Positions 9,368 through 37,357 of a stretch of DNA of 38,621 bases are shown piece after piece. Within the stretch, counting starts at the first letter, position 1, and every line of letters begins with the position of its first letter. Below the pieces are notes generated by a model. The model saw only the letters and a list, made by a program, of their open reading frames with translations, was not told the origin of the DNA and did no database searches. Location: IMG/VR virus record IMGVR_UViG_2541047830_000013; one strand, given 5' to 3'. The DNA comes from a virus. Taxonomy: Duplodnaviria > Heunggongvirae > Uroviricota > Caudoviricetes. Position numbers and translations under genes: made by a program.

Positions 9368-9377
9368 ATGTTTCAAA

Positions 9378-10220: not shown

Positions 10221-10429
10221 ACTTCCCCCTGTGTTACTTGTAAATTAAAGGGTAAAACATTATTTGTTTTTCCGTAAAGGATTAGCTTTCCATCTTCTTA
10301 CTAACCATTCGAATTCTTGATATGTAGTATCCGAATTAATGCTTTCTCTGATTGCTTTAATTAATGGCTCGGCAATATCATATGTCTCTACAACTGTTGT
10401 GTAAGATGTTCTTTTTATCATTTTTTCAT

Positions 10430-10438
10430 CATAAATAC
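10430..10438. repeat. Left copy of 9-bp target-site duplication cataaatac
   Basis: Identical to 11496-11504, immediately flanking the IS ends. Confidence 0.85.
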
Positions 10439-11495
10439 GGCTTTGTTGAATAAATCGAACTTTTGCTGAGTTGAAGGATCAGATCACGTATCTTCCCGAC
10501 AACGCAGACCGTTCCGTGGCAAAGCAAAAGTTCAAAATCACCAACTGGCCCACCTACAATAAAGCCCTCATCAACCGTGGCTCCATAACTTTCTGGCTGG
10601 ATGATGAAGCTATTCAGGCCTGGTATGAGTCAGCAACACCTTCTTCACGAGGCAGACCTCAGCGCTATTCTGACCTTGCCATCACTACTGTGCTGGTCAT
10701 TAAACGCGTATTCAGGCTGACCCTGCGGGCTGCGCAGGGCTTTATTGATTCCATTTTTTCTCTGATGAACGTTCCGCTACGCTGCCCGGATTACAGCTGT
10801 GTCAGCAGGCGGGCAAAGTCGGTTAATGTCAGTTTCAAAACGCCCACCCGGGGTGAAATCGCACACCTGGTAATTGATTCCACCGGGCTGAAGGTCTTCG
10901 GTGAAGGCGAGTGGAAAGTCAAAAAGCATGGCCAGGAACGCCGCCGTATCTGGCGTAAGCTGCATCTCGCCGTTGACAGTAAAACACATGAAATCATCTG
11001 CGCTGACCTGTCGCTGAACAACGTTACGGACTCAGAGGCCTTCCCCGGGTTAATCCGGCAAACCCACCGGAAAATCAGGTCAGCCGCCGCCGATGGCGCT
11101 TACGATACCCGGCTATGTCACGATGAACTGCGGCGTAAGAAAATCAGCGCGCTTATCCCTCCCCGAAAAGGTGCGGGTTACTGGCCCGGTGAATATGCAG
11201 ACCGTAACCGTGCAGTGGCTAATCAGCGAATGACCGGGAGTAATGCGCGGTGGAAATGGACAACAGATTACAATCGTCGCTCGATAGCGGAAACGGCGAT
11301 GTACCGGGTAAAACAGCTGTTCGGGGGTTCACTGACGCTGCGTGACTACGATGGTCAGGTTGCGGAGGCTATGGCCCTGGTACGAGCGCTGAACAAAATG
11401 ACGAAAGCAGATATGCCTGAAAGCGTGCGTATTGCCTGAAAACACAACCCGCTACGGGGGAGACTTACCCGAAATCTGATTTATTCAACAAAGCC
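10439..11495 (+). mobile_element. IS903 (IS5 family), complete 1057-bp copy
   Basis: Terminal inverted repeats ggctttgttgaataaatcg at 10439 and its reverse complement ending at 11495; 1057 bp; single transposase ORF; perfect 9-bp direct repeats on both sides. Confidence 0.9.
10516..11439 (+). CDS. IS903 transposase (307 aa from GTG)
   Basis: Sequence recalled as IS903/IS102-type transposase; track ORF begins at TTG 10471, likely GTG 10516. Confidence 0.85.
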   Translation: MAKQKFKITNWPTYNKALINRGSITFWLDDEAIQAWYESATPSSRGRPQRYSDLAITTVLVIKRVFRLTLRAAQGFIDSIFSLMNVPLRCPDYSCVSRRAKSVNVSFKTPTRGEIAHLVIDSTGLKVFGEGEWKVKKHGQERRRIWRKLHLAVDSKTHEIICADLSLNNVTDSEAFPGLIRQTHRKIRSAAADGAYDTRLCHDELRRKKISALIPPRKGAGYWPGEYADRNRAVANQRMTGSNARWKWTTDYNRRSIAETAMYRVKQLFGGSLTLRDYDGQVAEAMALVRALNKMTKADMPESVRIA

Positions 11496-11504
11496 CATAA
11501 ATAC
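11496..11504. repeat. Right copy of 9-bp target-site duplication cataaatac
   Basis: Identical to 10430-10438. Confidence 0.85.
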
Positions 11505-11837
11505 CTTCACGAATACTTACAGCAACTCGCTCGTAAAAATTTAAAATATATTGAAATTTTCGACGCTCGGCCATTTCTTCATCTGTTATTATGCAACCAT
11601 CACAAGGAAAAACATAAGAACGAAATGATTTGCCTGAACGATGCACTTGTTTCAGGGTATGCAATGACTCTATATATTGCATATCTTGCCGACTCTCAAA
11701 AAGAAAGTTGGCCGTTTGAGTTTTTTTTGCGGTACGCACATTGTAGATAATGGTTCCAATGGCAACCAAAACGCCAAGCAGAACAATAGCATTGCTGATG
11801 ATTTGTAGTGTTATTGGGTTCATCCTATTTCATCCAT

Positions 11838-11864
11838 AAAAAAGGCGGGGAGCAAATCCCCGCC
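11838..11864 (-). terminator. GC-rich hairpin with U-run on the minus strand (ggcgggga-gcaaa-tccccgcc); possible cos-proximal element
   Basis: Stem 11844-11851 / 11857-11864 with a T6 run on the minus strand; minus-strand core GAGGCGGGGA matches part of the P2 cohesive-end sequence as I recall it. Confidence 0.4.
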
Positions 11865-12020
11865 TCATTAGAGGTCAACGTAGCTTAGAAACCATCAAAT
11901 TCATCATACATTTTTTTCATATCAACCCCCTCATAGAAATCATAACCACGTTTTGTGGTTTTTGTGACGTATAAACTACATCAAAGGCAAGCCACGGTCA
12001 AATATATAGGCATGCTTACC

Positions 12021-15269: not shown

Positions 15270-15423
15270 TGCTCCCCCTGAGTAATTACAGGAAGATTAC
15301 CCGCGCGCGAAACCGTTCTCCTTAACCCCCTGTTCTGGCCATTTTCTTACAACAAAAGCCCTTTGTATCAGCCTGTTACGCTTTGCCATCATGACTGAAG
15401 AACCAGTCAGAGGGGCAAAAACT

Positions 15424-20249: not shown

Positions 20250-20703
20250 TTCCCTGCGTGAAGCCATGACCCGTTCATGCCGATGGTGTCAGGCCAACCC
20301 GGAAAAATTCACCATTTTCGTGGAGAGCGGCAACATTGAAACGACCGGAGAAACGCCCTCGTTTGTTTACCGCTATCAGATGGTGATGTTTGTCATGGAT
20401 TACGCCGGGGAGCTGGACGACCTGACGCTGCCGCTGCTGGCGTGGTTGTCGGAGAATCAGCCGCAGTTGTTGCTCAACCCTGAGCGTAATCAGGACATCA
20501 AATTTTCTGCCGTTATTAATGACGATGACAGCGCCGACATCCTGTTTACACTGCCCCTGCGGGAGCGCGTTCGCGTCACGCGCAGCAGTCAGGGCACACC
20601 GCAGGCAGAACACCTGCCGGAGCCCAAACCCCGCCTGCCATCTTCCGAAGGCAACTGGTCACATGTATTCCAGGATGTGACGTGGGGCGAAAGCGATGGA
20701 TAA
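20236..20703 (+). CDS. R: Tail completion protein (P2 gpR-like)
   Basis: 155 aa, same size and position as P2 R. Confidence 0.85.
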   Translation: MLKTDSLREAMTRSCRWCQANPEKFTIFVESGNIETTGETPSFVYRYQMVMFVMDYAGELDDLTLPLLAWLSENQPQLLLNPERNQDIKFSAVINDDDSADILFTLPLRERVRVTRSSQGTPQAEHLPEPKPRLPSSEGNWSHVFQDVTWGESDG

Positions 20704-21331
20704 GGCATTCACCCGCGCGGATGAAACCTTCGAGGCTATCCGCGACAGCCTGAATCAGCAGGCCATCAATAACATCGCCAGAAAGCTGGCACAGGATTTA
20801 CGCCGCGCCCAGCAGGCACGTATCCGGTCACAGAAAGCGCCGGACGGGACTGCATGGACACCACGCAGACGCCGCGTAACCCGGATACAGGAGCGCATTC
20901 GCTTTATCTGGAATAACGAAACACGCACGCTGAAAAACTGGCATCACGACACGGGGAAATACGGGCGAACCATTACCGGGTGGGATGAGGATAAAAACAA
21001 TATCCGCACGTTTTACCGGGATGACATCGACCGTTTTCTGGAAATACGCACCCGGCGTATCAACCAGGACAGCACAAAGCACGTCCCCATGTTCGTGAAA
21101 CTGCGCACCACCCGTTACCTGAAAGCCCGCGCGGATGCCTCCGGTGTGACGGTGGGTTACAGCGGCGTGGCCGCACGTATTGCACGCGTTCATCAGTTCG
21201 GCGAGCGCGATCAGGTTGCGCCGGGCATTTTCACCGATTACCCGGTACGTGAGCTGCTGGGTATCAGTCAGGCAGATGAACGCCTGATTTATAACACGGT
21301 GCTGGGCCGGATTGCGGAGGCTGTACGGTGA
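20696..21331 (+). CDS. S: Tail completion / virion morphogenesis protein (P2 gpS-like)
   Basis: Position between R and V; 211 aa. Confidence 0.8.
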   Translation: MDKAFTRADETFEAIRDSLNQQAINNIARKLAQDLRRAQQARIRSQKAPDGTAWTPRRRRVTRIQERIRFIWNNETRTLKNWHHDTGKYGRTITGWDEDKNNIRTFYRDDIDRFLEIRTRRINQDSTKHVPMFVKLRTTRYLKARADASGVTVGYSGVAARIARVHQFGERDQVAPGIFTDYPVRELLGISQADERLIYNTVLGRIAEAVR

Positions 21332-21909
21332 GCGCAGAACTCATGCGACTGCTGAGCAACATCATCCGCACCGGGATCATCTCTGAAGTTGACGAGGAAT
21401 CCTGGTGCGTGCGCGTTCGCAGCGGCGAACTGGAAACAGGCTGGCTGCGCTGGAACACCACACGCGCGGGAGCCTTTAACGTGTGGCTTCCGCCATCACC
21501 CGGCGAACAGGTGGTCATTGCCTGCATCGGCGGCAATCCGGAAACCGCCATGATAATTGGCAGTCTGTGGAGTGATGCCAATCCGGCACCCGGCAAAAAC
21601 CTGAAAGAAATCGTGGTCAGCGCGCCGGATGGCGCGGTGTTCCGCTACGACGCGGACGCAGGCGCACTGAGCGCCAGCGGCATGAGAACGGCCACCCTGC
21701 AGGCATCCGTCAGTGTGACACTGGACACGCCTGTTGTGGAATGCACAGACCTTCTGAGAACAGCGACGCTTGACGTCACAAAAGGGGGAAAGATGAGCGG
21801 CAATATCACGCACAGCGGCGGCGATTTCACCTCAAACGGCATCACAGTGCATACGCATAAGCACGGTGGCGTTAAAGGTGGCAGCGATTCGACAGGAGGC
21901 CCGCAGTGA
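21328..21909 (+). CDS. V: Baseplate spike protein (P2 gpV-like)
   Basis: NIIRTGII and HTHKHGG segments match P2 gpV as recalled; GTG start overlapping the S stop. Confidence 0.85.
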   Translation: MSAELMRLLSNIIRTGIISEVDEESWCVRVRSGELETGWLRWNTTRAGAFNVWLPPSPGEQVVIACIGGNPETAMIIGSLWSDANPAPGKNLKEIVVSAPDGAVFRYDADAGALSASGMRTATLQASVSVTLDTPVVECTDLLRTATLDVTKGGKMSGNITHSGGDFTSNGITVHTHKHGGVKGGSDSTGGPQ

Positions 21910-23686: not shown

Positions 23687-26311
23687 ATGAGCACGAAATT
23701 TAAAACCGTTATCACTACTGCCGGAGCCGCAAAGCTGGCAGCCGCCACTGTCCCCGGCGGGAAAAAAGTAAACCTGTCTGCAATGGCTGTGGGTGACGGT
23801 AATGGCAAATTGCCGGTGCCGGATGCCGGTCAGACGAAACTGGTGCATGAGGTCTGGCGTCACGCTCTGAATAAAGTCAGCGTGGATAACAAGAATAAAA
23901 ACTATATCGTGGCTGAACTGGTTGTTCCGCCAGAAGTGGGCGGCTTCTGGATGCGTGAGCTTGGTCTGTATGATGATGCCGGAACACTGATTGCGGTATC
24001 CAACATGGCAGAAAGCTATAAGCCAGAACTGGCTGAAGGCTCCGGGCGTGCGCAGACCTGCCGCATGGTTATTATTCTCAGCAACGTGGCGTCCGTTGAG
24101 CTGAGTATTGATGCCAGCACAGTGATGGCGACGCAGGATTACGTCGATGACAAAATCGCAGAGCATGAGCAGTCCCGCCGCCATCCTGACGCCACGCTGA
24201 CAGAAAAAGGTTTTACTCAGTTAAGCAGTGCAACAAACAGCACCAGTGAAAAGCTGGCAGCAACGCCAAAGGCAGTAAAAGCAGCCTATGACAATGCTGA
24301 GAAACGTCTGCAGAAAGACCAGAACGGTGGCGATATTCCAGATAAGGGCGCTTTTCTGGACAATATTGGCGTTACCAGCCTGACGTTTATGAAACACAAT
24401 GGAATGATTCCAACCACTGACAATCTTGATTCCTATGGCCCAGAAGAAAAATATCTTGGAACGTGGTCATGTCCGTCACAATCCACTGCAAAACCAGAGT
24501 CTGGTTACCCTGAAGATAAAGGCAATGGGGTTCTGGAAGTATTCAATGCTGGTCGCTTTCACTGCACACAACGCTACACCACCCGAACCGGTAATATTTA
24601 CATTCGGATGCTTGATGCAGAATGGAACCCTGTCAGTCCTGTATGGAGTGCATGGAGAGCTATTACAAGCGGGACTCGCCCATTAAGCACGTCAATTGAC
24701 CTGAATTCTTTAGGTGGTGCGGAACACCTGGGAATATGGCGCAATAGCAGTACATCAATAGCCTCATTTGACCGTCATTTCCCGGAGGAAGGGAGTTTTG
24801 GACAGGGTATTCTGGAAGTCTTTGAAGGCGGTCTGTATGGGAGGATGCAACGTTATACCACCCGTAGTGGGACTATGTACATTCGCGGACTGACAGCCTC
24901 ATGGGATGCAGAAAATCCACAATGGGAGGACTGGATTGCTGTTGGGTATCAGTCCACGGGATGGACTTATTCAGGGGATCTTGATGACCTTTTAAAGCCT
25001 GGTATTTATAGCGTCACGAAACAGGCCACAAATGCACCTGTCACCGACTCTAAAGATCTTGCTGTTGGCTCAATAGTTGAGGTGAAAAAACGTTGTGATA
25101 TTGAATCGTATATCCAGACATATACGACTGTTTCAGCAACGGATGCCTATAAAAACCGGACATTTCAGCGAACCCGCGCCAGCGGTGAAACTGACTGGGG
25201 GGAATGGGCGGAAGTATACAACTCAAAATCATTACTCACTAAATTAGGTGTCGGCGGTGTTACCGACAGGTTATCCAGTCTGGACTGGCAGACCTACGAC
25301 TTTATACCGGGCAGCATGATAACTGTCAGGCTTTCAGATATGACCAATATTCCCGATGGGATGGAATGGGGCGTCATTGATACTAACCTGATAAATATCA
25401 CTGTTGGCCCCAGTGAAGGCGGAGGTGTCGCCCGTTCAATGCAGGTATGGCGCAGCACTTCAAACAAAACCAACTATCGTTTTTTTACAGTCCGCTTATA
25501 TGGCAATCCTGGGGAGCGTAGCTTCAATATTCGTCGGCTACCAATTATCGACGAAGCCCAGACATGGGCAGCGAAACAGACATTCAGCGGTGGTCTTTCA
25601 GGTGAACTGTCCGGCAATGCGGCTACAGCAACAAAGCTGAAAACGGCAAGGACAATTAACGGCGTAAAATTTGACGGCTCGGCAAATATTGAAGCGTTTC
25701 CGCCTGGTGTTCCGCTGCCGTGGCCATCAGATACACCACCTGCAGGCTATGCAATCATGCAGGGGCAGACGTTTGATAAGGCAGCATATCCGAAACTGGC
25801 TATAGCCTATCCTTCTGGTGTTATTCCTGATATGCGCGGCTGGACAATCAAGGGCAAACCCGCCAGTGGGCGTGCCGTATTGTCACAGGAACAGGACGGG
25901 ATTAAATCGCATACTCACAGTGCCAGTGCGTCAAATACGGATTTGGGAACGAAAACAACCAGTTCGTTTGATTACGGGACGAAGACAGTCAGTACGTTTA
26001 ACTACGGAACAAAAACCACTAATACCACTGGTAACCATACACATACCATTTACAGAGGGAATGCCAATACTAATGGTGAAACCGGTAAAACAGGCTTTGA
26101 CAACCCATCGTTTAATGGCACATCAGGAGCTGCCGGGAATCATGCCCACACGGTAGATATTGGTGCACATAATCATACGGTTGGTATTGGTGCACATTCA
26201 CACACGGTTGCTATTGGCTCACACGGGCACTCTATTACCGTTAATGCTACAGGTAATACAGAAAACACCGTCAAAAACATCGCATTTAACTATATTGTGA
26301 GGCTTGCATAA
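23687..26311 (+). CDS. H: Tail fibre protein (P2 gpH-like N-terminus, divergent C-terminal tip with HxH repeats)
   Basis: 874 aa; C-terminus [33 protein letters not shown] encoded partly by tandem 27-bp repeats at 26161-26214. Confidence 0.85.
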
Positions 26312-26886
26312 TGGCTTTCAGAATGAGTGCAGAAGCACAAACTATCCGCGTTTTCAATTTACTTGATGGAACCAATGAATTTATTGGTGAAAGTGATGCA
26401 TATATTCCGCCGCATACAGGTCTGCCTGCAAACAGTACAGATATTGCACCACCTGATATTCCTGCTGGTTATGCAGCCGTTTTCAATGCAGATGAAATGA
26501 AATGGGAACTGATGGAAGATCATCGCGGAAAGACTGTCTACGAAACGAAAACGGGAGCAGCCATTTATATTTCTGAACTTGGTGTATTACCTCCAGACGT
26601 GACAGCCATTTCCCCGGATGGGGATTATCAGAAATGGAACGGAAATGCGTGGGTGAATGATGAGAATGCAGAGCATGATGCACTTGTCAGAGCGGCGGAG
26701 TCTCAGAAGAAAGAGCAGATTGCATATGCCGGTGAAATTATTGGCACTCTGCAGGATGCTGTCGATTTAGATATGGCTACCGAGGAAGAAAAGTTAAGCC
26801 TGACACACTGGAAAAAATACCGTGTGCTACTGAATCGCGTTCAGCCGGAAAATGCCCCTGATATCGAATGGCCAGAATTAGTGTAA
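26311..26886 (+). CDS. G: Tail fibre assembly chaperone (P2 gpG-like)
   Basis: ATG overlaps the H stop; 191 aa. Confidence 0.8.
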
Positions 26887-26907
26887 AGGCAAGATGATTT
26901 AAGGAAC

Positions 26908-26937
26908 AAAACCGCCAATATGTTTATTAGCGGTTTT
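26908..26937. terminator. Hairpin between convergent G and U genes (aaaaccgc / gcggtttt, 14-nt loop)
   Basis: Read directly; A-run and T-run flank the stem on both sides, so it could act bidirectionally. Confidence 0.4.
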
Positions 26938-26945
26938 GCATTAAG

Positions 26946-27434
26946 TCAAAACAACCCTTTAACGGAGCTGGCCGCGCTGTTAAGAGATGATGTGACCTTA
27001 TCTTTGAAGCCGGACAGCATATCGCTGAACGATGAGGATTGCAGGCGCTCCCGCAAATCCTCATCACAGCGTTCAAGGGTCAGTGAAAATTCTATCTTTT
27101 TCGCCTTACCGTAGCGATCAAACTCGGAACGGGTCGTATTCGTTTCGGTCAGGACATACATGCCGTAAATCTGCCCGACGCCATCAATCAGAGGCCAGGG
27201 GCGTCCGGTATACGCCTGCGTGGCCAGCAGAGACAGCGACACTTCGCCACCTGTAATTTCAGGATAAAGCACACCAGAAAGAACAATACGATCATCGCCA
27301 GCCCCGATATACTGCCAGCTTGCTGAACGGTTAACGCGTTCATTTTTCACATGTCGCCAGCTTTTATTTTGCTGTAACTGCTGATGCGGCAATGTGCGCA
27401 GCTCAAAAACAAACATGCCGTAGATCATCATCAT
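26946..27434 (-). CDS. U: Tail protein (P2 gpU-like)
   Basis: About 160 aa; start taken at the third Met (27434), 8 nt from GAGGAG; track start is 27440. Confidence 0.8.
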   Translation of the reverse strand: MMMIYGMFVFELRTLPHQQLQQNKSWRHVKNERVNRSASWQYIGAGDDRIVLSGVLYPEITGGEVSLSLLATQAYTGRPWPLIDGVGQIYGMYVLTETNTTRSEFDRYGKAKKIEFSLTLERCDEDLRERLQSSSFSDMLSGFKDKVTSSLNSAASSVKGLF

Positions 27435-27446
27435 GGCCATGACTCC

Positions 27447-30263
27447 TCAATCTTTATCGTAAAAACTGCCACGTCCGGCACGGTCGCGTCGTTCCAATTC
27501 TGCCCTGACCATTTCACCGACCAGTTTCGCCAGTTCGCGGGGATTCTGCGTAACAACGTTATGCAGATGGACATGAATTTCACCACCAAATCCGGAGGTA
27601 ACAGGCTCCCGGTTACGGGAAGTTGCAGGAACTGATGCCACTGGCGATCGTATGGCCTCCGCCACCGGGCGGGAGCTGGCCGCAACAACAGGGACCAGCG
27701 CCGGAGGCAGCGGAGCCGGAACCACGGGGGTGATATTAATTGCGGGAGCAGGCTTACTGGCCTGCGCAATCTTCCGCTCCTGCCACTCCCCACGAACGGC
27801 AAGTGCGCGGGGCAGGTTCTTAAAGACAATATCACCGGGGCCAATGCGTTTTTTCGTCTCATCAACCAGCTTACCTGTGTTATCAGCAATTTTGCTGAGT
27901 CTGCGTAGCGTCCCGGTATTGCTGTCTGTGAGCGGTTTGTTGTCTTTGGGTTTATCACCTCCGGTGCCATTGCCATTTTCTACAGGCTTCGGCGGATTGA
28001 TTTTCGCCAGGTCCCCCTGAAGCAAGGCAACCTTGTCCTGAAGAATGGCCGCACGCTGTGCGTCTTCGATTTTCTTGCGCGCCCTTTCCGCTTCATCCGG
28101 AAGGACGCCAAGTTTTTCAAGTATCCACGCCAGCGTATCCAGTAGCATTTTTGCAGGTGTCAGAACAAGTTGTAACGCACCGCCAAGAACGTTACCGAAT
28201 ATCTCGCCAGCACTGGCACATTTATCCAGCGTTTCCTTGCTGGACTCCATCGGTGACAGCAGCGATTTAAACCAGTTAAACACCTGGCTGATCCCGCTTC
28301 CGATTGCGTCAAAAACAGGGCCAAACCGTTCAAAGGTTTCGCGCAACGGAGTCAGCCTTTCCATAATCCCGCTGAACACCCCGGCAAAAAATGCCCTGAT
28401 GGGATCCCAGTATTTCCAGATAAGAACGGCAGCTCCGGCAAGCGCAGCCACGATAAGACCAACCGGACTGAACAGCGCCCCGATAGCGCCTCCCAGTAAA
28501 GAAACGGAACCCGTCACCATTCCCCACAGCGCAGGCAACACCCTGACGACATTCATTGACCGGGTAAGAATGTCAAAACCAAGACGCAGGGTGGCCAGCT
28601 TCCCGTAAAGCACCCCAATAACCAGCGACAACGAGCCAATCGTTGCAGTCATTGCCAGCAACGCACCGCCTGCTATCAGTAGCTGGCGCGTCAGTGCGGG
28701 ATGGGCCTGCGCCAGCGCCGTCACCTTTGATACCACACGCGTGAGCCACTGCGTGACAGAACGCAGCGGACCGTCAATCAGATCTGCAATGCGGATGCGC
28801 AACCCTTCCCATGCACTGCCAAGTGATTTCAGATCGCCGTCAAGGTTGTTGGCCATAACCTTTGCCGTGCGTTCAGCCTCACCGCGCGCGCCTTCAAGTT
28901 CTTTTCTCAGTTTGGGTAAGGAGCCGTCACCTGCCGCATCAACGAGGGCCATAAATGATGTGAAAGCCTCTTCTCCGGCAATGTCCTTAAAGAACGATAC
29001 CCGGTCAACTTCCCCGTATTTGCGGGTAGCTTTATAAAGGTCAGCCAGCACATCCTCCATCGGGCGCATTTTGCCCCCGGCATCCGAGACAGACACGCCA
29101 AGCTCTTTCAGCGCCTCTGCTGCCGCCTTTGGCGGTGATGCCAGACGAGCCAGGCTGGCACGCATTGCCGTACCAGCATCACTCCCCCTGATACCCATAT
29201 TCGCCAGCACGCCCGCCATCGCTGCGGCCTGCTCCAGCGATATTCCCAGCTTACCCGCCACCGGACCTGCATATTTCATGGTTTCACCCAGTGCGCGAAG
29301 GTCAGTGTTGGTACGGGTAAACGCTGCGGTAAGTGTGTCGCCGACCCGGTCCATCTGGTCAGCAGAAAGACCGAACTGCGTCAGAATATTTGAGCCAATA
29401 TCCGCCGTCTCACCGAGGTCCATACCGCCAGCCGTTGCCATGCTCAGTACGCCAGGGAGCGCAGCCTGAATGGCCTGCGGAGTGAAGCCAGCCATTGCAA
29501 GAAATGCCTGTCCACTGGCGGCATCGCCTGCGGTGAACTGCGTTTCAGAGCCAAGTTTTAACGCCTGCTCACGCAGCGCCTTAAACTGCGGGCTGTTTTT
29601 GTCGATTCGCGTCAGTGCCTGAACGCGGGACATCTCTTTCCCGAACCCGATCGCAGGCTGCAAAAAACGCCCGGCAGCATAGCCGCCCGCCGCTGCCGCA
29701 CCAATTGCCAGCGCACCACCTGTTTTCAGTTTTCCCGCTGTTTCCTGCGCGCGCGAATACCGCTCACGCGCCCGCGTTACACGCGCAAGCGCCTGCCGTT
29801 CGCGTTCAAGCTGGTTGTTGTATTGTTCGGTGCGTCTGATGGCCTGCTGAATGGTGTTATCGCTGCCTGTCAGGGAAATGCCGTGGCGTTTCAGTTCTCC
29901 GCCAAGCTCCCGCATTTTCTGAATTTCCCGTGTGCGCGATTCATTCAGGCGTTCAAGCCGGGTGCTTAACTGCTGCATCAGCTTTTGTTGTTTTTCGCTG
30001 AGCACTGTACCCGTGCGTTGTAACTGATTAAGGGCGTTAAGCTGGCGTCGTGCTTTCACGATACCCGCATCCGCTTTACTGACAGCGTCGCGGGCGCGCT
30101 CAAATGAACGCGCCTGACGCTCGAGATTTTTGATCGCCCCCTGCGTTCGCTGAATGGAGTCACCAAACTGCCCCATCAGGCGGCGGGCGTTTTCGGCAGG
30201 CCGGGTCAGCCTGTCAACGGCGCTGAAAGCGACCCGGATATCAAGAGTCTTCATTGTCTGCAT
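27447..30263 (-). CDS. T: Tail tape measure protein (P2 gpT-like)
   Basis: About 940 aa, helix-rich with Gly/Ala-rich hydrophobic central segments; start overlaps the end of E-prime. Track start GTG 30290; ATG at 30263. Confidence 0.85.
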   Translation of the reverse strand: MQTMKTLDIRVAFSAVDRLTRPAENARRLMGQFGDSIQRTQGAIKNLERQARSFERARDAVSKADAGIVKARRQLNALNQLQRTGTVLSEKQQKLMQQLSTRLERLNESRTREIQKMRELGGELKRHGISLTGSDNTIQQAIRRTEQYNNQLERERQALARVTRARERYSRAQETAGKLKTGGALAIGAAAAGGYAAGRFLQPAIGFGKEMSRVQALTRIDKNSPQFKALREQALKLGSETQFTAGDAASGQAFLAMAGFTPQAIQAALPGVLSMATAGGMDLGETADIGSNILTQFGLSADQMDRVGDTLTAAFTRTNTDLRALGETMKYAGPVAGKLGISLEQAAAMAGVLANMGIRGSDAGTAMRASLARLASPPKAAAEALKELGVSVSDAGGKMRPMEDVLADLYKATRKYGEVDRVSFFKDIAGEEAFTSFMALVDAAGDGSLPKLRKELEGARGEAERTAKVMANNLDGDLKSLGSAWEGLRIRIADLIDGPLRSVTQWLTRVVSKVTALAQAHPALTRQLLIAGGALLAMTATIGSLSLVIGVLYGKLATLRLGFDILTRSMNVVRVLPALWGMVTGSVSLLGGAIGALFSPVGLIVAALAGAAVLIWKYWDPIRAFFAGVFSGIMERLTPLRETFERFGPVFDAIGSGISQVFNWFKSLLSPMESSKETLDKCASAGEIFGNVLGGALQLVLTPAKMLLDTLAWILEKLGVLPDEAERARKKIEDAQRAAILQDKVALLQGDLAKINPPKPVENGNGTGGDKPKDNKPLTDSNTGTLRRLSKIADNTGKLVDETKKRIGPGDIVFKNLPRALAVRGEWQERKIAQASKPAPAINITPVVPAPLPPALVPVVAASSRPVAEAIRSPVASVPATSRNREPVTSGFGGEIHVHLHNVVTQNPRELAKLVGEMVRAELERRDRAGRGSFYDKD

Positions 30264-30770
30264 TCCCGCTGCGAAGTGCCGCCCGCTCACGCCAGCTAAC
30301 CACTTCGCCGGGCGTCATCATGAAGATTTCGGCGGGCGACCAGTTAAAAATAACGGCAATATCTGCCACAAAGTCTTCTATGTGCTCAAAGCACACAACC
30401 GTGATCAGGCTTCCGTCGCCTGTTCGTTCTTCCCGCCAGAGTCCGCACCGCTCAAAAAATTTACGGCAACCACACATAACTGAATAAAGTCACGGGATGC
30501 CATTTTTTTGATCGTCACTTCATCCAGTCGCGGTGATGTCACGCGTGACAGCAGCGTAAACATGGATTCCGCTTTCAGATTCAGCACATCAGACAGCGAC
30601 AAATCTCGCAGAGATCCAGCCTGCTCAATAGCCCCGGTGATCTCCACATACGTGATTTTTTCGCCGCCTCGCTCAATTGGTTGGGTAAGTTTTACGCCAC
30701 GCTCACTGGTTTCTTTCACAGTGTCAGTAACTACCGTGTTTTCGGTATCGATGTTTTTCGTCTCTTTCAT
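30241..30770 (-). CDS. Tail assembly chaperone fusion E+E-prime, made by programmed -1 frameshift
   Basis: E frame 30770..30405 and -1 frame 30477..30241 are joined at the heptamer T_TTT_TTG (30459-30453, minus strand); post-shift reading reproduces the 78-aa track ORF (FFERCGLWREE...). Confidence 0.6.
30405..30770 (-). CDS. E: Tail assembly chaperone (P2 gpE-like)
   Basis: ATG 30770 with AAGGAG RBS; between tube gene and tape measure. Confidence 0.65.
   Translation of the reverse strand: MKETKNIDTENTVVTDTVKETSERGVKLTQPIERGGEKITYVEITGAIEQAGSLRDLSLSDVLNLKAESMFTLLSRVTSPRLDEVTIKKMASRDFIQLCVVAVNFLSGADSGGKNEQATEA
30453..30459 (-). other. Slippery heptamer T_TTT_TTG for the E/E-prime -1 frameshift
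   Basis: In-frame codons aat-ttt-ttg of E, verified codon by codon. Confidence 0.6.
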
Positions 30771-30824
30771 CAGGAAACTCCTTTCAATCAGAGGCGACGC
30801 ACTGCGCCGCCTGCATATTACTTA

Positions 30825-31337
30825 TCAGCCAAGCCCGAGCGCGGAACGGATGCGATCGGGCACAATGTCCTTGCCGTCCTTCCGGTAAATGAAGTTCAGC
30901 AGGTCAATCTCCCACAACGGGCGATCGTTAACACTCAGCTTGTAGTAGGTGTTTTTAATGGCGTAAGTGTGTGATGTGGCTTCGCCCTGTTTGGCTTCCC
31001 CCATATCAATTTCCGTCACACGTCCGCGCATTTCGACTTCATACAGGTCGCTTTCTGCATCGGTGTAGTATTCACCCGCAAAACGCAGCAGCGTGCCGTC
31101 AATCGTGCCGCCATACTTAAGGAACAGCTCACGAACTGCGCCCCCCATGACAAAGCTCGCATCAAGCGCGGAGTCGTCCAGACCGAGATCAATACTTACC
31201 GCACCCATCATGCCACCACCCCGGTAGCTGTCGGTTTTGCGCGTCAGCTTAGGCAGAGTGACGGACGTCACCTTACCCACTTCGTTTTCACCATCCACAA
31301 ACAGCGTAAAAAAGCGAAGATGTTTTGGTACAGCCAT
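30825..31337 (-). CDS. FII: Tail tube protein (P2 gpFII-like)
   Basis: 170 aa; ATGA overlap with the sheath gene. Confidence 0.9.
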   Translation of the reverse strand: MAVPKHLRFFTLFVDGENEVGKVTSVTLPKLTRKTDSYRGGGMMGAVSIDLGLDDSALDASFVMGGAVRELFLKYGGTIDGTLLRFAGEYYTDAESDLYEVEMRGRVTEIDMGEAKQGEATSHTYAIKNTYYKLSVNDRPLWEIDLLNFIYRKDGKDIVPDRIRSALGLG

Positions 31338-32521
31338 CAGGCACCTCCCAGCACCGCAAATGCGGGACCAAAGAATTCATCAGTAAACGACTGGTAAAGC
31401 TCCATGTCTTCCAGCGGGGGAACAGGCGTATATTTGTAGCGAATACGCACGCGCCCCTGACGTAAATCCGTGGTGCTGTTATCCACCACGTCATACCAGC
31501 ACTCCGCGCCAATCAGTTTCCCGGCAGTAACCAGTGAATCCAGTTTTGCCCTGATGGCACTGATAACATCCTTCACGTTCGCAGGCGTCAGTGGACTGTC
31601 GATGGTTTCAAACTGCGCTTCCGCAATTGAATCAGCCAGCACCTGTGCGGTTCGGGTATACACCTCAAAGATGTAGGCGTTCGTTTCCGGTGTGCGGTTG
31701 CCCCAGAAGCGGAACCCGTTGCGACGAATAATGGTCGTGATTTCTTTGTTGTTAAGGCTGTTGGCATCACTGTCTTCGGCCTGCAACGACCAGAAAACAT
31801 GCCTCGACATCCCCAGCACATTTTTAACCGGAACGTTGGACAGTGATTTGTGCCATCCCTGCTCATGGTCAATGTACGCACGAAGGCCGCACGCATAGGC
31901 AGGCGCGGGGAACGTTTCGTTTTTGCCACTTTTCGGGTTGTAGGCGATGAAGTCCGGCCATAAGAGCATCACCTCACGTTCGTTGAATTTCTGGCGGTAG
32001 GCAATCGCCTCAGCCATCGTGTTACAGCCGTGACATGAGGCATACACAAACGCGCGCAGTTTACCCGCAATCACGCACAGGGATTTTGTTACCGCCTCCG
32101 TGTCCAGCTCCGGCGCAGCCAGAATACGCGGACGGTATCCGATGCTTTCATCCTGCTCTGCAACAAGCAGCGCATACATCCCCGTATAACTGCCGTCAGA
32201 TTCAGAACCACCGATAACCAGTTGATCCTGTGTCTTTCCGTCTTCTTCTTTGTGTTCAGCCACGCGAACGACGATCACCTTTGTGCTCACCTGGTCTGCG
32301 ATGGCCTTAAGCGCACGATAAAGCGTCCCCGTTGTTCCGCATTTTCCCAGCACGTCATTGACGCGGGTCAGCAATGTGGGCTTGTTCAGCGGGAACAGCT
32401 CCGCATCCGCATCATCCGCCGTTGCCACGATACCGATAACACTGGAATCAACATCATTAATCGCTGTTACCAGGTCGGTACTTTCCGTAACACGGGCACC
32501 ATGAAAACGAGTTTCACTCAT
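31337..32521 (-). CDS. FI: Contractile tail sheath protein (P2 gpFI-like)
   Basis: 394 aa; size and position. Confidence 0.9.
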   Translation of the reverse strand: MSETRFHGARVTESTDLVTAINDVDSSVIGIVATADDADAELFPLNKPTLLTRVNDVLGKCGTTGTLYRALKAIADQVSTKVIVVRVAEHKEEDGKTQDQLVIGGSESDGSYTGMYALLVAEQDESIGYRPRILAAPELDTEAVTKSLCVIAGKLRAFVYASCHGCNTMAEAIAYRQKFNEREVMLLWPDFIAYNPKSGKNETFPAPAYACGLRAYIDHEQGWHKSLSNVPVKNVLGMSRHVFWSLQAEDSDANSLNNKEITTIIRRNGFRFWGNRTPETNAYIFEVYTRTAQVLADSIAEAQFETIDSPLTPANVKDVISAIRAKLDSLVTAGKLIGAECWYDVVDNSTTDLRQGRVRIRYKYTPVPPLEDMELYQSFTDEFFGPAFAVLGGA

Positions 32522-32678
32522 AGCTTCAGCCCCTTGTATCCGTTAAATGATTCAGCAACAATCATCACCCACCACGCGCGTAATCTCACCCCTGCGCTAT
32601 TCTCCCGCCACGGCGACAACAAAAAGCAGTAACCCCCTCCGCACGCACATGCGACCATGCCGCACAGGGAGGGAACAG

Positions 32679-33779
32679 ATGACCGACACCACCATGCAAT
32701 TGCTCAGTCAGGGCACAGACCCCGTGAAAATGCCGGATTTTGATATTCTTGCGGAGGGTAAAACGCTGTCAGGCGTGGCAGAGCGCCTGATGAGCCTGTC
32801 ACTGACCGACAACCGGGGATTTGAAGCAGACCAGCTCACCATCACGCTGGATGATGCAGATGGTCAGTTGCAGCTACCGCCACGGGGCGCACGCCTGACG
32901 GTTCTCATTGGCTGGAAAGGCGAACCGCTGACAGAAAAAGGCACTTACATTGTTGATGAAATCGCTCACGAAGGACCACCGGACAGGCTGACTGTTTCAG
33001 CCAGAAGCGCAGATTTTCGGGATGAATTTAACGTTAAACGAGAGGTGTCCTGGCATGATGTGACCGTTGAGCGTGTGGTATCCGCCATCGCTCATCGGTA
33101 CGGTCTGAAACCGCAAATCAGCGAAATGCTGATGGATATCGAAATCGACCACGCCGACCAGACCGAAGAGAGCGACATGTCCTTCCTTACGCGCATGGCG
33201 GAAATGCTGGGCGCAATCACCACGGTAAAAAGCGGTAATCTGTTATTCATCATGCCCGGTGGTGGCGTGAACGCACAGGGCCAGCCGTTGCCATCGTTCG
33301 CCATTACACGCAGCAGCGGCGATCGCCATCAGTTCCGCATTGCTGACCGCGAGGCGTATACGGGGGTACGCGCCTACTGGCTTGATCTTAATTACGGGAA
33401 AAAGAAAAAAGTCAGCGTGAAACGCCGCAAACCGAAAAAAGAGAAAAGCAGCAGCCGTGAAGGTGACTATATGGAAGGTGCGGAAGGCAACGTGTTTGTG
33501 TTACGCAAGACTTATCAGAACGAGCAGGCAGCAAGACGCGCAGCGGCGGCAAAGTGGCAGCAGCTACAACGCGGAGCCGCATCATTTTCCATCACGCTGG
33601 CGCGTGGACGTGCAGAACTCTACCCCGAAATGCATGGCACGGTAACAGGATTTAAAAGCGAGATTGATAATCAGGACTGGATTATTGCAAAAGCCGAGCA
33701 CACCATTGATAACAGCGGCTTTACCACGCAGCTTGAGCTTGAGGCAAAAATCCCGGAATGGATAGCAGAAACAGCGTGA
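32679..33779 (+). CDS. D: Late control / tail protein D (P2 gpD-like)
   Basis: ATG 32679 with AGGGAGGG 5 nt upstream; the track ORF from 32547 adds a low-complexity N-terminus. Confidence 0.85.
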   Translation: MTDTTMQLLSQGTDPVKMPDFDILAEGKTLSGVAERLMSLSLTDNRGFEADQLTITLDDADGQLQLPPRGARLTVLIGWKGEPLTEKGTYIVDEIAHEGPPDRLTVSARSADFRDEFNVKREVSWHDVTVERVVSAIAHRYGLKPQISEMLMDIEIDHADQTEESDMSFLTRMAEMLGAITTVKSGNLLFIMPGGGVNAQGQPLPSFAITRSSGDRHQFRIADREAYTGVRAYWLDLNYGKKKKVSVKRRKPKKEKSSSREGDYMEGAEGNVFVLRKTYQNEQAARRAAAAKWQQLQRGAASFSITLARGRAELYPEMHGTVTGFKSEIDNQDWIIAKAEHTIDNSGFTTQLELEAKIPEWIAETA

Positions 33780-33832
33780 ATGTCTTAAATGTATTAGTTC
33801 AGATATGTACTAGCAATAAACATAGTTAGAAA

Positions 33833-33848
33833 GGCCGCTAACGCGGCC
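33833..33848. terminator. GC hairpin between convergent D and the DUF3800-like gene (ggccgc-taac-gcggcc)
   Basis: Read directly; A/T-rich flanks. Confidence 0.4.
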
Positions 33849-33870
33849 ATATTAATTAAAACTCCAGTTA

Positions 33871-35040
33871 CTAATATTGAGAAAGATAATCAGCGACTCC
33901 ATCTGCAGGGTTTCGCCCACCAGTATAAATTGTGCCTAATTCTTGAGGTGTAACATATGTTGTAGGCCAAATGGCCATATTTTTAAAATAGTTATCTATT
34001 TTTATTCTTTGAAGTTCTTTAAAGAGATAATCTTCTAAGTCATTTCTTTTTAGACAGTTAACATAATAAGCAGCCGCACTTGCTACTATATCTACAATTT
34101 GTAATTGAGGATACTCTTGTGATGAATGGAATGTCAAAGAACGAGCTTTAATTGGCAATTCAAATTTTCTTCGATCATAACCATATGCCTCCGTAATTTT
34201 TGATATATCCATAAATTTATCAAAAATATCTTTCTTCTCTGTAATAGCTTTGGAATCGTCATGCTTAATATAAAAACCATTAGGGTATAATTTACCCCAT
34301 TCTACACAGTGTCTAAAGAGGCTTGGTATAGATGGATCTAATGTGCTTTTCTCAACACCTTCCAATATATCATCAATATCGCTTCTGGTAATACTAATTC
34401 TGTTTATTATATCTGTGAATATCTTATCACTTGAGCATATCTTTAACTCATCAATTACCCTGTAAAATTCATCAATTGACTCAGTCGATTGGCTTCTGAT
34501 CATATTCATAAAACACTGATACATTACCTCTGTTTTTTCCTCCCCACAGAAAGCAGGGAAACAGAAATAGTAAACATTAGACAGAGCTAGATTCTGTCCA
34601 TTTATATAAAGATCTATTCCTCTATTAGAGCACCACGTCTCGATCAAAATATCAACAATCTTTGCTGTTAGCATGTATTTTTTATCGACCAAGTATATTT
34701 TAACATTCTCTTCATTGACATATTTGCTTTCAAGAAGCCTAATGATGCCATCCTGACCAGATTTTCTACGTCTAAGAGTTTTAAAGTGGGCTTCTGTTGG
34801 AGACTTGCTTCCGGTTAGTTCTAATGCCTTAAGCGCATCCTGTTTACTAATACTACTTGAACTTAAGGTAAAAACAGGTTGCAATGGATCGAGTAAATTT
34901 CCGCCAGTATTACCTGATTCATCAAAAAATATATCAGGCTTTATATACAACATTTTATTTATCTTTGCCGCTAAGTTTCTTTTTTTCTCATTTTCTCGCT
35001 TAATTTTATTATCTCGCCTACGTTGACTATTCTTTCCCAT
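33871..35040 (-). CDS. AT-rich accessory gene, DUF3800-like protein (389 aa)
   Basis: ATG 35040 with GAGG RBS; N-terminal FFDESGNTG and C-terminal LQIVDIVASAA resemble DUF3800 family motifs as I recall them; much more AT-rich than the flanking D and ogr. Confidence 0.6.
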   Translation of the reverse strand: MGKNSQRRRDNKIKRENEKKRNLAAKINKMLYIKPDIFFDESGNTGGNLLDPLQPVFTLSSSSISKQDALKALELTGSKSPTEAHFKTLRRRKSGQDGIIRLLESKYVNEENVKIYLVDKKYMLTAKIVDILIETWCSNRGIDLYINGQNLALSNVYYFCFPAFCGEEKTEVMYQCFMNMIRSQSTESIDEFYRVIDELKICSSDKIFTDIINRISITRSDIDDILEGVEKSTLDPSIPSLFRHCVEWGKLYPNGFYIKHDDSKAITEKKDIFDKFMDISKITEAYGYDRRKFELPIKARSLTFHSSQEYPQLQIVDIVASAAAYYVNCLKRNDLEDYLFKELQRIKIDNYFKNMAIWPTTYVTPQELGTIYTGGRNPADGVADYLSQY

Positions 35041-35272
35041 AAATACCTCACAATCTGAATTAGATATCCCAATTTAACGCATTAATAACATAATGTTATG
35101 ATATCACACAATCAAAATAACGTGCTGATTTTAATGTATCAGGTTTGACTAGCTATTCTTTGATAAGCGAATAATAAGAATGTCAGCCCCTCAACTCAAA
35201 GCGGTTTAGTCAGTTGGAATCGGAGCTAGTAGAACTTAAAATAACAGAAGCACCACGTTAAGGGAGGTCTCT

Positions 35273-35533
35273 ATGTTCCGTTGTCCGCTTTGTGGCGCAT
35301 CTGCCCGTATCCGCACAAGTCGTCCGGAAAATGATTCAAACACCGTGCGGCAAAAGTATTACCAGTGTAACAACCTGGAATGCGGCGTATGCTTCTCAAC
35401 ACTGGAAGCCTTCCATAAATTCACATCAAAACACGCCTCCGCCGTTCACTCTTCAGAAGGTATCCCGTGGCATGAGCTGCCAGCTTCACACAGGGGAAAC
35501 AATCAGATGAGTTTGCCTTTACCTCAGAACTAA
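35273..35533 (+). CDS. ogr: Late gene activator Ogr (zinc-finger)
   Basis: MFRCPLCGA...YQCNNLECGVCF gives a Cys4 arrangement matching P2 Ogr; AGGGAGG RBS. Confidence 0.85.
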   Translation: MFRCPLCGASARIRTSRPENDSNTVRQKYYQCNNLECGVCFSTLEAFHKFTSKHASAVHSSEGIPWHELPASHRGNNQMSLPLPQN

Positions 35534-36126: not shown

Positions 36127-36459
36127 ATGGCATTAATCAAATGTCCTGAATGCCAGAAAGAGGTGAGCGATTCAGCATTGTATTGCCCTGCTTGTGGTAA
36201 ACAACTGCAAAAACTTAAGCGTTCATTTTTTGGACGGATCATTAAGTGGGTTTTTATATTATTTAATATTTTTATGATCTATACGCTTTTAGTTGGACTA
36301 GGAGGCACTAGTGAAATAATAAATAATGCCACATCCGATGCCGAAAAAGCCGGTGCAGTTATTGGTACAGGCTTAGGTTTAATTACCATTGGAAGCTTAT
36401 GGGTTATTGGCGATATCATTATCGGAATTTTAGTATTTCTTACTAAACCAAAGGGATAA
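36127..36459 (+). CDS. Zinc-ribbon membrane protein (110 aa)
   Basis: N-terminal CPEC-x13-CPAC zinc ribbon then two hydrophobic helices; strong AAAGGAGG RBS; AT-rich. Confidence 0.6.
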   Translation: MALIKCPECQKEVSDSALYCPACGKQLQKLKRSFFGRIIKWVFILFNIFMIYTLLVGLGGTSEIINNATSDAEKAGAVIGTGLGLITIGSLWVIGDIIIGILVFLTKPKG

Positions 36460-36463
36460 TAAA

Positions 36464-37357
36464 ATGAAAAATATAATTTTTTCTATAGGTGCATCATTTA
36501 TATCAATTAGTGTACTGCCTGTTCACGCAGCAACTGAACATAAGAACTTCAATGCAGTACTCCAGTGCCGAGCAATAGAAAATAATAAAGACAGACTTTC
36601 TTGTTACGATAAGTCAATACAACCGACTCGAACGAAAGTTGCTGAAAAATTCGAAAGCAGAGATCAATGCCCTGATGAGAAAGATGATGATAGACGTTTA
36701 TCTTGTTATGATCGTTTCTTTTCTCCAACATTTACTCCATCTGTAAACTCAAAATCTAAAACGGAAAAGCCAGTAACAACAGAGGCTCAGCAACCAAATC
36801 TTTCTGAGATATCTAAATGTCGTGCAGAAAATGATAAAGAAGCTAGACTAAACTGCTACGATAAACTATTCCCACAGGATAAAATCGTTCAAGCTGAATC
36901 AAAATTAGAGAAAGCCACAGATGTAGGAAAATGGCACACATCCATTACTACATCGCCAATTGATGATTCGAAAAATGTAATTTTATCGTTAGAAAGTGAT
37001 GATTATATCAGAACTCCATTTGGAGAAGCGGTTACTCCTACTCTTTTTATAGCTTGCCGAGAAAAGAAAACCGAAGTATTTCTTAGTTGGGATGTATATT
37101 TAGGCCTTGAACAAACCAGCATGCTTTATCGCCTTGATAAACAGAAAGCAGTTGAGCGAAACTGGCTAGTATCTACAGATACAAAGGCTGTTTTTTATAA
37201 AGGTAATGACATTGATTTCATCCGAAAACTAGCCAACTCAAGCAAAATGTATACAAAAATAACGCCTTATAATGAGAGCCCCGTAAGTGCAACTTTCAAT
37301 TTAAACGGCCTGTCAAACGCGCTAAAACCGCTTCAAGCTGCTTGTAACTGGAAATAG
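36464..37357 (+). CDS. Secreted protein with three Cys-containing repeats plus a C-terminal domain (297 aa)
   Basis: Signal peptide ending VHA-A; three repeats of the form C-x8-RLSCYD-x-F/I (QCRAIENNKDRLSCYDK, QCPDEKDDDRRLSCYDR, KCRAENDKEARLNCYDK); 5 nt after the upstream gene. Confidence 0.6.
   Translation: MKNIIFSIGASFISISVLPVHAATEHKNFNAVLQCRAIENNKDRLSCYDKSIQPTRTKVAEKFESRDQCPDEKDDDRRLSCYDRFFSPTFTPSVNSKSKTEKPVTTEAQQPNLSEISKCRAENDKEARLNCYDKLFPQDKIVQAESKLEKATDVGKWHTSITTSPIDDSKNVILSLESDDYIRTPFGEAVTPTLFIACREKKTEVFLSWDVYLGLEQTSMLYRLDKQKAVERNWLVSTDTKAVFYKGNDIDFIRKLANSSKMYTKITPYNESPVSATFNLNGLSNALKPLQAACNWK

Follow-up and report, generated by a model that had tools for sequence, protein, structure and literature searches.

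The tail genes of the DNA analysed here, a stretch of 38,621 nucleotides (the window), are not arranged as in P2. H and G lie on the plus strand, U, T, E/E', FII and FI on the minus strand, and D and ogr again on the plus strand. Therefore, the question arises whether the reversed block is a rearrangement private to this prophage, an assembly error, a programmed switch or an inherited trait. Gene identities and strands were determined with PHROGs, Pfam and tblastn searches with P2 proteins, and all three agree with the strands proposed for H to D in the first-pass annotation.

The plus-strand late operon ends with G. It comprises at this end the tail fibre gene H (23687–26311; PHROG 295/4618), whose N-terminus is 83.6% identical to that of P2 H, and the tail fibre assembly gene G (26311–26886; PHROG 105, E = 1.7e-89). 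Across a G/U spacer of 59 bp (26887–26945) follow, all on the minus strand, the tail protein U (26946–27440; PF06995, E = 6e-39; 46% identical to P2 U), the tape measure protein T (27447–30290; PHROG 28; 33% identical to P2 T), E (30405–30770; PHROG 103), the tail tube FII (30825–31337; PHROG 55; 42% identical to P2 FII) and the tail sheath FI (31337–32521; PHROG 23, E = 2.4e-126; 46% identical to P2 FI). The PHROGs label for FII reads 'head closure'. E' is read in the −1 frame down to 30241, so that the E+E' region spans 30241–30770; by analogy with P2, E+E' would arise from −1 frameshifting on the slippery sequence T_TTT_TTG (30453–30459). A divergent spacer of 157 bp (32522–32678) separates FI from D, the baseplate hub or late control D protein (32679–33779, plus strand; PF05954), which is 100% identical to gpD of P88. 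The zinc-finger late activator gene ogr (35273–35533, plus strand; PF04606, E = 4.7e-14) encodes a protein with 38% identity to P2 Ogr. Both spacer lengths had been given correctly before, and the strong ribosome-binding site noted for D is GGGAGGG (32667–32673). This site and the annotation of P88 support the ATG at 32679 as the start of D. A longer reading frame from 32547 was rejected, since its 44 additional residues fall outside the family profile and relatives do not share the upstream ATG. A PADLOC search of the cargo genes gave no confident assignment to a defence system.

In P2, the F operon PF-FI-FII-E/E'-T-U-D contains the same seven genes in one transcription unit that runs in the direction of V to G, with an overlap between D and the end of U. 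The corresponding proteins of the window share 32–50% amino-acid identity with those of P2, and the frameshift device annotated for E/E' in P2 is the same. When 27 P2 proteins were compared with the window by tblastn, all except B found a match (26–84% identity). The orthologues of int, C, cox, A, Q, P, O, N, M, L, X, R, S, V, W, J, I, H, G, D and ogr are collinear with P2, and those of FI, FII, E, T and U make up the remainder. Hence, FI to U is the only inverted segment, and the clean inversion of this block that had been read from the gene order holds against P2 and the outgroups. The window thus carries the full structural and regulatory gene set of the Peduoviridae in P2-like order apart from the FI-to-U block, together with the E/E+E' frameshift site and its −1-frame reading frame. 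In contrast to P2, the entire block lies between U and D. Since D is thereby cut off from U, it needs a promoter of its own.

A comparison with P88 bears directly on whether the inversion arose recently in this prophage, possibly inactivating it. The clean inversion relative to P2 would fit such an event. However, window positions 26910–33779 align with P88 in one collinear piece across the FI/D junction, with 97.8% identity and the same annotated strands. Over its whole length the window is collinear with P88, with 69.5% aligned at 95.6% identity. Identity multiplied by aligned fraction amounts to about 66% of the window and about 72% of the 35.8-kb P88 genome, which is borderline when set against the full-length identity of about 70% in the ICTV guideline for genera. 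The window may include non-phage flanking DNA or extra cargo. P88_4B11, 500465-2, PhiR44_2, Chuche and Citrobacter phage PhiSM match in the manner of P88, PhiSM with one contiguous piece across both junctions.

Taken together, the Xuanwuvirus phages (P88, P88_4B11, 500465-2, 520873, 503458, PhiR44_2, Chuche and PhiSM) are 94–98% identical to window positions 26910–33779. They share the order and strands V-W-J-I-H...U-T-E'/E-FII-FI/D-ogr, the FI/D spacer and a hairpin after U. The arrangement typical of this genus, U-T-E'/E-FII-FI opposite to V...G and to D with a divergent FI/D spacer, is thus present in the window. The window differs from these phages in lacking an invertible tail-fibre cassette and a DNA invertase gene between G and U, in a P2-type H C-terminus and G, in its int/C/cox module, in a cargo region with an IS element at 9.1–12.0 kb and in an inserted DUF3800 gene that separates D from ogr.

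P88 is inducible by mitomycin, forms plaques with a burst size of about 65 and produces myovirus particles (PMC5285337). PhiSM of Citrobacter is an active phage as well (PMC6456863). Since related functional phages share the orientation, it is a lineage trait. The earlier doubt as to whether functional particles form from this layout finds no support in view of P88, and neither does the implied reading as a noteworthy or possibly private rearrangement or as an assembly artefact.

The layout extends well beyond Xuanwuvirus. Klebsiella phage ST16-OXA48phi5.4 (Reipivirus) has the same strands and a gpD with 70% identity. Together with unclassified prophages from about 28 genera, nearly all Enterobacterales, it shows FI to U inverted beside a divergent D (gpD 61–80% identical); these loci are much more diverged and differ in the cargo between the tail fibre genes and U (e.g. 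a DUF262 gene). The inverted layout was found in all 80 IMG/VR relatives retrieved and in all 59 genome loci with a gpD 61–99% identical (about 28 genera, nearly all Enterobacterales). All 21 loci with a gpD 48–53% identical have the P2 order. Among loci with a gpD near 50% identity, P2 itself and the outgroups Burkholderia phage ST79 and Vibrio phage MAR have it too. The inverted type forms one clade in simple neighbour-joining trees computed without bootstraps, both for gpD (61 of 61 tips) and for FI (60 of 60 tips). Thus, the layout is restricted to one clade and universal within it.

Among 5426 complete E. coli genomes, about a quarter (1358) contain the FI/D junction, which is intact in all but 21 of the 1379 genomes with any match. 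An inversion private to this prophage is very improbable, given this number of genomes with the right junction and the universality of the layout across some 28 genera. A mis-oriented contig segment, which had been raised as an artefact of assembly, is a priori conceivable and has nothing else in its favour. It is hardly credible, since the same junctions occur in hundreds of independently closed genomes and in deposited phage genomes, and diverged relatives preserve the regulatory geometry of the FI/D spacer.

The functional relatives, the universality within the clade and its monophyly indicate one ancient, fixed inversion. We therefore consider it highly probable that the window is a P88-like (Xuanwuvirus-type) prophage of the P2 family, whose FI-FII-E/E'-T-U block was flipped by a single ancient inversion, with fixation in the ancestor of a large clade of Enterobacterales Peduoviridae. 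For this large and functional P2-related group the reversed block is the normal state, passed on by inheritance, and as such ordinary. The earlier reading as an inversion is correct as a comparison with P2, but not as a fresh or unusual event.

The left joint has a different history. The convergent genes G and U are separated by a hairpin at 26907–26938 with 14-nt arms (26907–26920 and 26925–26938; 93% complementary) and a 4-nt loop. A terminator-like hairpin had been proposed at 26908–26937, and folding supports it: the free energy is −20.8 kcal/mol on the plus strand and −22.0 kcal/mol on the minus strand (z = −5.1 and −6.3), and none of 200 shuffled sequences folds as well. Folding was used for this assessment because the hairpin is missing from the list of a consensus terminator scan, a consequence of its T-run, which lies inside the stem. 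With only four T in this position it is not a textbook intrinsic terminator. We regard it as a candidate bidirectional intrinsic terminator that probably ends both the G and the U transcript. A hairpin of −10 kcal/mol or stronger is found downstream of U in 46 of 56 unique sequences of the clade; this was counted without a shuffled control and therefore carries no weight here.

The homology to P88-like phages begins at 26908–26910, i.e. within this hairpin, which marks its left limit. Further upstream, the N-terminal part of H is P88/P2-like, whereas its C-terminal part from about 24292 onwards is a swapped module; the P88 homology in H ends at 24291. Window positions 26000–26877 are 97.7% identical to Peduovirus P24A7b. 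A P2-type tail-fibre module stands where P88 has the invertible cassette and the invertase gene. The left joint is the product of a later tail-fibre module exchange with its right end at the hairpin, by which cassette and invertase were removed. The 59-bp G/U spacer, one of the two junctions named in the first-pass annotation, is therefore not an original breakpoint of the inversion, as the homology to P88 starts inside it.

The exact G/U joint has no full-length match among the 5426 complete E. coli genomes, which at first sight would favour an inversion private to this prophage. This rarity is, however, due to the tail-fibre swap, and the joint recurs at 98% identity in two independent IMG/VR contigs (L014 and L024) and as a remnant on plasmid pN10e. 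A joint unique to the window was therefore rejected.

A reversible, programmed flip of FI to U by a Gin/Cin-type invertase would have the neighbourhood of U in relatives in its favour. Only about 35 bp lie between the stop codon of U and the end of a DNA invertase gene in P88, P88_4B11, 500465-2 and many IMG/VR loci. Gin/Cin systems of the Mu G-segment type are host-range switches. A cassette comparable to the Mu G segment and the P1 C segment is found in relatives right at the left junction, where the invertase adjoins alternative tail-fibre genes (H' and tfa' on the opposite strand). What such a switch inverts is limited to the C-terminus of the tail fibre and the chaperone genes. The window has no switch of this kind, and it has no bearing on how FI to U is oriented. 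Cassette and invertase are also absent from about half of the IMG/VR relatives, so that they do not define the group.

The first-pass annotation had noted neither flanking inverted repeats nor an invertase gene, and PHROGs and a repeat search are in accord with this. The window contains no invertase homologue, and at the two junctions only chance-level repeat pairs were found. The region holds 73 such pairs, the best candidate among them being I12 (26963–26979 and 32387–32403, 17 nt, 82%). Site-specific inversion was rejected on these grounds. Furthermore, the junction of minus-strand FI and plus-strand D is constant with or without an invertase gene where gpD is at least 61% identical. Close relatives with both orientations of FI to U were not found among the 80 IMG/VR relatives, the 59 genome loci or the 1379 matching E. 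coli genomes, of which 1358 retain the FI/D junction. A programmed flip thus has next to no probability. As the only exception noted, the T gene of one IMG/VR contig (L020) is split between two invertase copies.

With the orientation regarded as an ancient fixed trait, the expression of D has to be considered. The FI/D spacer measures 145–172 bp in 57 unique relatives. In the window it contains a single N12 dyad with at most one mismatch, a candidate Ogr-type activator site TCT-N12-ACA at 32601–32618 (centre 32609.5); Ogr is its presumed binder. A dyad occupies the same place in 53 of the 57 relatives, while four unique spacers have no central N12 dyad at this threshold. The most conserved columns are TGT, ACA and an ACAACA extension, and the N12 interior is variable. 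The window has TCT instead of TGT in one half-site. Of the two half-sites, the one towards D (GCGACAACA) shows the stronger conservation. The P/O spacer of the window (15334–15351) likewise carries the TCT-N12-ACAACAAAAG variant. Late control in Peduoviridae relies on an Ogr/Delta zinc-finger activator and TGT-N12-ACA sites about 55 nt upstream of the late starts. It may operate in the window as well, which has an Ogr gene and one-mismatch dyads at the expected places of the P/O and FI/D spacers.

Promoter elements can be predicted on both flanks of the dyad. For the FI promoter PF, the predicted −10 element is GATGAT (32561–32566, minus strand) with a start at about 32554; its pattern xAxxAT is conserved across the clade with the consensus GATTAT. 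For D, the predicted −10 element is GACCAT, preceded by TGc (32653–32658, plus strand), with a start at about 32665, and the pattern TGnxAxxAT is conserved as well, GACCAT itself being a weak −10 hexamer. Throughout the clade, −10-like hexamers lie 44–49 nt from the dyad centre on both sides, which places both predicted starts about 55 nt from it. The divergent control region assumed earlier for 32522–32678 is in line with this arrangement. In 53 of 57 inverted-type spacers the dyad is 78.5–88.5 nt from the ATG of FI and 66–80 nt from that of D. The distance to FI is 88.5 nt in the window, 79.5–83.5 nt in loci with P2 order and 82.5 nt for PF of P2 itself.

A precedent exists in P2, where one Ogr site lies midway between the divergent late promoters PP and PO. 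According to the annotated sites its dyad centre (3071.5) is 55.5 nt from both starts (3016 and 3127), and the single FI/D dyad would be used likewise. The starts and the site of PP/PO are annotated from experiments and serve head genes, whereas the FI/D version is a prediction and serves tail genes. The model thus draws on positional conservation and the analogy to P2. As the compared spacers are kin, their conservation reflects in part common ancestry, yet divergence is seen in the N12 interior and over most of the spacer.

The inverted segment would accordingly have taken along PF and its dyad-symmetric Ogr site. Now located in the middle of the 157-bp spacer, this site may act both ways, with PF driving FI-FII-E/E'-T-U to the left and another late promoter driving D to the right, as P2 does with one site for PP and PO. 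The transcripts of G and U would meet at the hairpin at 26907–26938 and both terminate there. In the window, unlike in P88, the invertible tail-fibre cassette and the invertase were lost by the module exchange that ends at this hairpin.

D may instead have an independent promoter, constitutive or differently regulated, with the dyad serving PF only and the inversion being a lineage trait all the same. This is possible, though rather doubtful. The D-side promoter is a prediction, one half-site of the window dyad is imperfect and GACCAT is weak. On the other hand, a consensus scan of 32522–32678 found no sigma-70 promoter on the plus strand, which argues against a plain constitutive promoter for D. 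Moreover, the dyad is held at 44–49 nt from the D-side −10 element clade-wide, matching the FI side and the PP/PO geometry of P2, and the half-site facing D is the better conserved. We therefore tend towards the first model, in which a deep clade of Enterobacterales Peduoviridae (Xuanwuvirus, Reipivirus and many unclassified prophages) is marked out by a single ancient inversion of PF-FI-FII-E-T-U, tolerated because the Ogr site of PF could be used from both sides, which would have given a new promoter for D. A limited literature search found no paper that states the inversion or the D promoter explicitly.

Consequently, the inversion is no reason to flag a rearrangement, a defect or an assembly error, as it is standard in a very common prophage group. 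In all loci examined, FI to U points one way relative to D in the P88/Reipivirus clade (gpD at least 61% identical) and the other way in phages with P2 order (gpD at most 53%), which makes this orientation a clean and easily scored marker. If the proposed model is true, the FI/D spacer would be a further late control region of the PP/PO kind, acting in both directions, with a new stand-alone late promoter for D. Its conserved geometry offers a case for testing how, with a symmetric activator site, a phage operon could be split by inversion while the stranded gene stays under late control.

Gene calls from an ORF map, PHROG and Pfam assignments and tblastn with 27 P2 proteins agree with the identities and strands of the first-pass annotation. 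The plus strand carries H (23687-26311) and G (26311-26886), which are followed on the minus strand by U (26946-27440), T (27447-30290), E (30405-30770), FII (30825-31337) and FI (31337-32521), and then on the plus strand by D (32679-33779) and ogr (35273-35533). E' is read in the -1 frame after a T_TTT_TTG site (30453-30459) and has its end at 30241 (minus strand). Since the other P2 orthologues in the window (26-84% identity in tblastn) are collinear with P2, the FI-U block is the sole inverted segment relative to P2. The G/U (26887-26945) and FI/D (32522-32678) spacers indeed measure 59 and 157 bp. As had been noted, the window contains no invertase gene according to PHROG assignments, and a repeat search of the region gave no meaningful inverted repeats flanking the block. 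A longer in-frame ORF would add 44 codons to D (32547-32678), spanning the control region; the lengths of several close D homologues in databases (407-418 aa) probably stem from this false start or one like it.

In a megablast search of deposited phages, 26910-33779 matches Escherichia phage P88 as a single collinear piece with 97.8% identity, and P88_4B11, 500465-2, 520873, 503458, PhiR44_2, Chuche and Citrobacter phage PhiSM with 94-97%. Annotations of P88-type relatives place U, T, E', E, FII and FI on one strand and D, baseplate and fibre genes on the other, as in the window. The full window is collinear with P88 as well (69.5% aligned, 95.6% identity) and is a P2-family (Peduoviridae) prophage of P88 type; its membership of the genus Xuanwuvirus is borderline by whole-genome similarity. 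P88 is mitomycin-inducible, forms plaques and myovirus particles and has a burst size of ~65 (PMC5285337), and PhiSM is described as a fully functional temperate phage (PMC6456863). Of 5426 complete E. coli genomes, 1358 contain the FI/D junction (32250-32950; coverage of at least 80%), and in each of the 80 IMG/VR loci that gpD retrieved, FI is on the minus and D on the plus strand. Hence, an assembly artefact, which the first-pass annotation had considered, is ruled out, and the orientation is a trait of the lineage, present in functional phages, an outcome that the first-pass annotation had itself named as refuting its reading. The block is inverted relative to P2, as proposed there, but the inversion is old, fixed and functional.

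For an estimate of its depth, one genome per species was searched with a gpD alignment and each locus was typed by tblastn. The inverted layout was present in 59 of 59 loci with 61-99% identical gpD, from ~28 genera including Salmonella, Citrobacter, Klebsiella, Enterobacter, Serratia, Erwinia, Pantoea, Pectobacterium, Brenneria, Hafnia, Yersinia, Providencia, Morganella, Xenorhabdus, Photorhabdus and others. It is also found in Klebsiella phage ST16-OXA48phi5.4 (genus Reipivirus). All 21 loci with 48-53% identical gpD have the P2 order, as do two phages at a greater distance, Burkholderia phage ST79 and Vibrio phage MAR. In neighbour-joining trees with the Vibrio phage as root, the inverted type is monophyletic for gpD, encoded outside the block (61/61 tips), and for FI inside it (60/60 tips), and neither tree places a P2-order sequence within the inverted clade. 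The simplest reading is an inversion that happened once, in the distant past, with the P2 order as the older state, and that has been passed on stably since. Its main caveat is that both trees are plain distance trees that carry no support values. One contig (L085, NZ_JBQPOM010000071.1) is labelled as the Gram-positive 'Vagococcus sp. WN89Y' and harbours the same enterobacterial prophage, with 99% identical gpD; this assembly is probably contaminated or mislabelled.

The left junction is the sole part specific to the window. Its hairpin (26907-26938), seen already in the first-pass annotation, has 14-nt arms and a 4-nt loop, with free energies of -20.8 and -22.0 kcal/mol for the two strands (z = -5.1 and -6.3); none of 200 shuffles folded as well. 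After G, P88 and many relatives carry an alternative tail-fibre cassette in reverse orientation and then a DNA invertase ending ~35 bp from U, the layout of Mu-/P1-type host-range switches. Homology to P88 breaks at 24291 and restarts at 26910, inside the hairpin, and 26000-26877 is 97.7% identical to the P2-type phage P24A7b. Thus, a tail-fibre module exchange with the predicted terminator hairpin as right boundary removed the cassette and the invertase; over 24292-26909, a P2-type H C-terminus and G stand in their place. None of the 5426 complete E. coli genomes has the exact G/U joint; two IMG/VR contigs carry it (98% identity). The E. coli phage-plasmid pN10e (locus L004, 9347-9439) has kept it as G, hairpin and a 93-nt U remnant, which suggests that the fibre module travelled together with its downstream predicted terminator. 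Thus, the 59-bp spacer, previously taken for an inversion junction, is a recent mosaic joint rather than the original breakpoint.

The neighbouring invertase of the relatives was considered as the inverter of FI-U and rejected, because the FI/D junction is intact in relatives with and without it. In one locus (L020, IMGVR_UViG_2654587728_000014, 430-7612), T is split at residue 455 and rearranged near the invertase: the C-terminal half of T, U, an invertase and a G-like gene are inverted and flanked by two invertase copies of opposite orientation. Possible explanations are that two related prophages recombined or that the contig is chimeric.

In P2, the divergent promoters PP and PO share one activator site, a TGT-N12-CCA dyad centred at 3071.5, 55.5 nt from each annotated transcription start (3016 and 3127). 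The centre of the PF dyad precedes the FI ATG by 82.5 nt in P2 and lies 79.5-83.5 nt from it in other P2-order loci. FI/D spacers of the inverted clade vary narrowly in length (145-172 bp), and 53 of 57 unique ones contain a dyad that matches TGT-N12-ACA with no more than one mismatch. Its centre is 78.5-88.5 nt away from the FI ATG and 66-80 nt away from the D ATG. Because the FI-side spacing corresponds to PF geometry, the inversion presumably carried PF along with the FI-U genes. When the spacers are aligned, TGT and ACA(ACA) rank among the most conserved columns; variation is found in the N12 interior and over most of the spacer. With sequences anchored on the dyad centre, conserved -10-like hexamers appear at 44-49 on both flanks (GATTAT on the FI side, TGnAAtCAT on the D side), which would put transcription starts ~55 nt from the centre on both sides, like PP/PO. 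In the window, the candidate dyad is TCT-N12-ACA (32601-32618), with GATGAT (32561-32566, minus strand) and GACCAT (32653-32658, plus strand) as hexamers and predicted starts near 32554 on the FI side and near 32665 on the D side; the latter keeps the ribosome-binding site GGGAGGG within the D leader. The divergent P/O spacer reads TCTGGCCATTTTCTTACA followed by ACAAAAG, the same TCT-N12-ACAACAAAAG variant (15334-15351), and was treated as an internal control for the site form used by this phage's Ogr.

Taken together with a promoter scan that gave no sigma-70 consensus promoter on the plus strand of the FI/D spacer, this makes a two-way Ogr site the best model: the symmetric Ogr site of PF would now act in both directions and provide D with a late promoter of its own. 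The less likely alternative is that D has a promoter that does not depend on Ogr. It is somewhat more likely than not that the block was inverted a single time, long ago, and that the inversion was viable because this site could be used from both sides. The longest O ORF starts at 15391, just 48.5 nt from the P/O dyad centre; therefore, O probably begins further downstream, near 15430. The genes S (20696-21331) and V (21328-21909) overlap, in contrast to P2, where orf30 and the PV promoter gap separate them; consequently, R-S-V-W-J-I-H-G may continue the O operon.

Several regions carry additional genes. Between D and ogr (33780-35231), a low-GC (~33%) gene with a DUF3800 domain (33871-35040, minus strand, 389 aa, PHROG 12991) is inserted. 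It gave no PADLOC match and has no counterpart at this position in P88; the site resembles a slot for morons or accessory cargo. The region 9126-12020 (38-41% GC) is absent from P88. It includes an IS with a DDE transposase (10471-11439, plus strand) and an ORF (9378-10220, minus strand, 280 aa) with a weak PADLOC match to Csx27 (E = 1e-5) and no Pfam match. Downstream of ogr (36127-37357) lie genes for a 110-aa zinc-ribbon protein and a 297-aa protein with a VasI-like domain (PF11319, type VI secretion); the annotation of P88_4B11 shows a gene pair of the same sizes (333 and 894 nt) at the corresponding position.

Since it occurs in reference genomes and ICTV-classified phages, the inverted tail block as such is already known, although a literature search limited to a few papers gave no explicit statement of it. 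Possibly new is that the orientation marks a deep clade, which comprises many unclassified prophages besides two or more genera, and that the FI/D spacer resembles PP/PO, as another late control region that would work in both directions.
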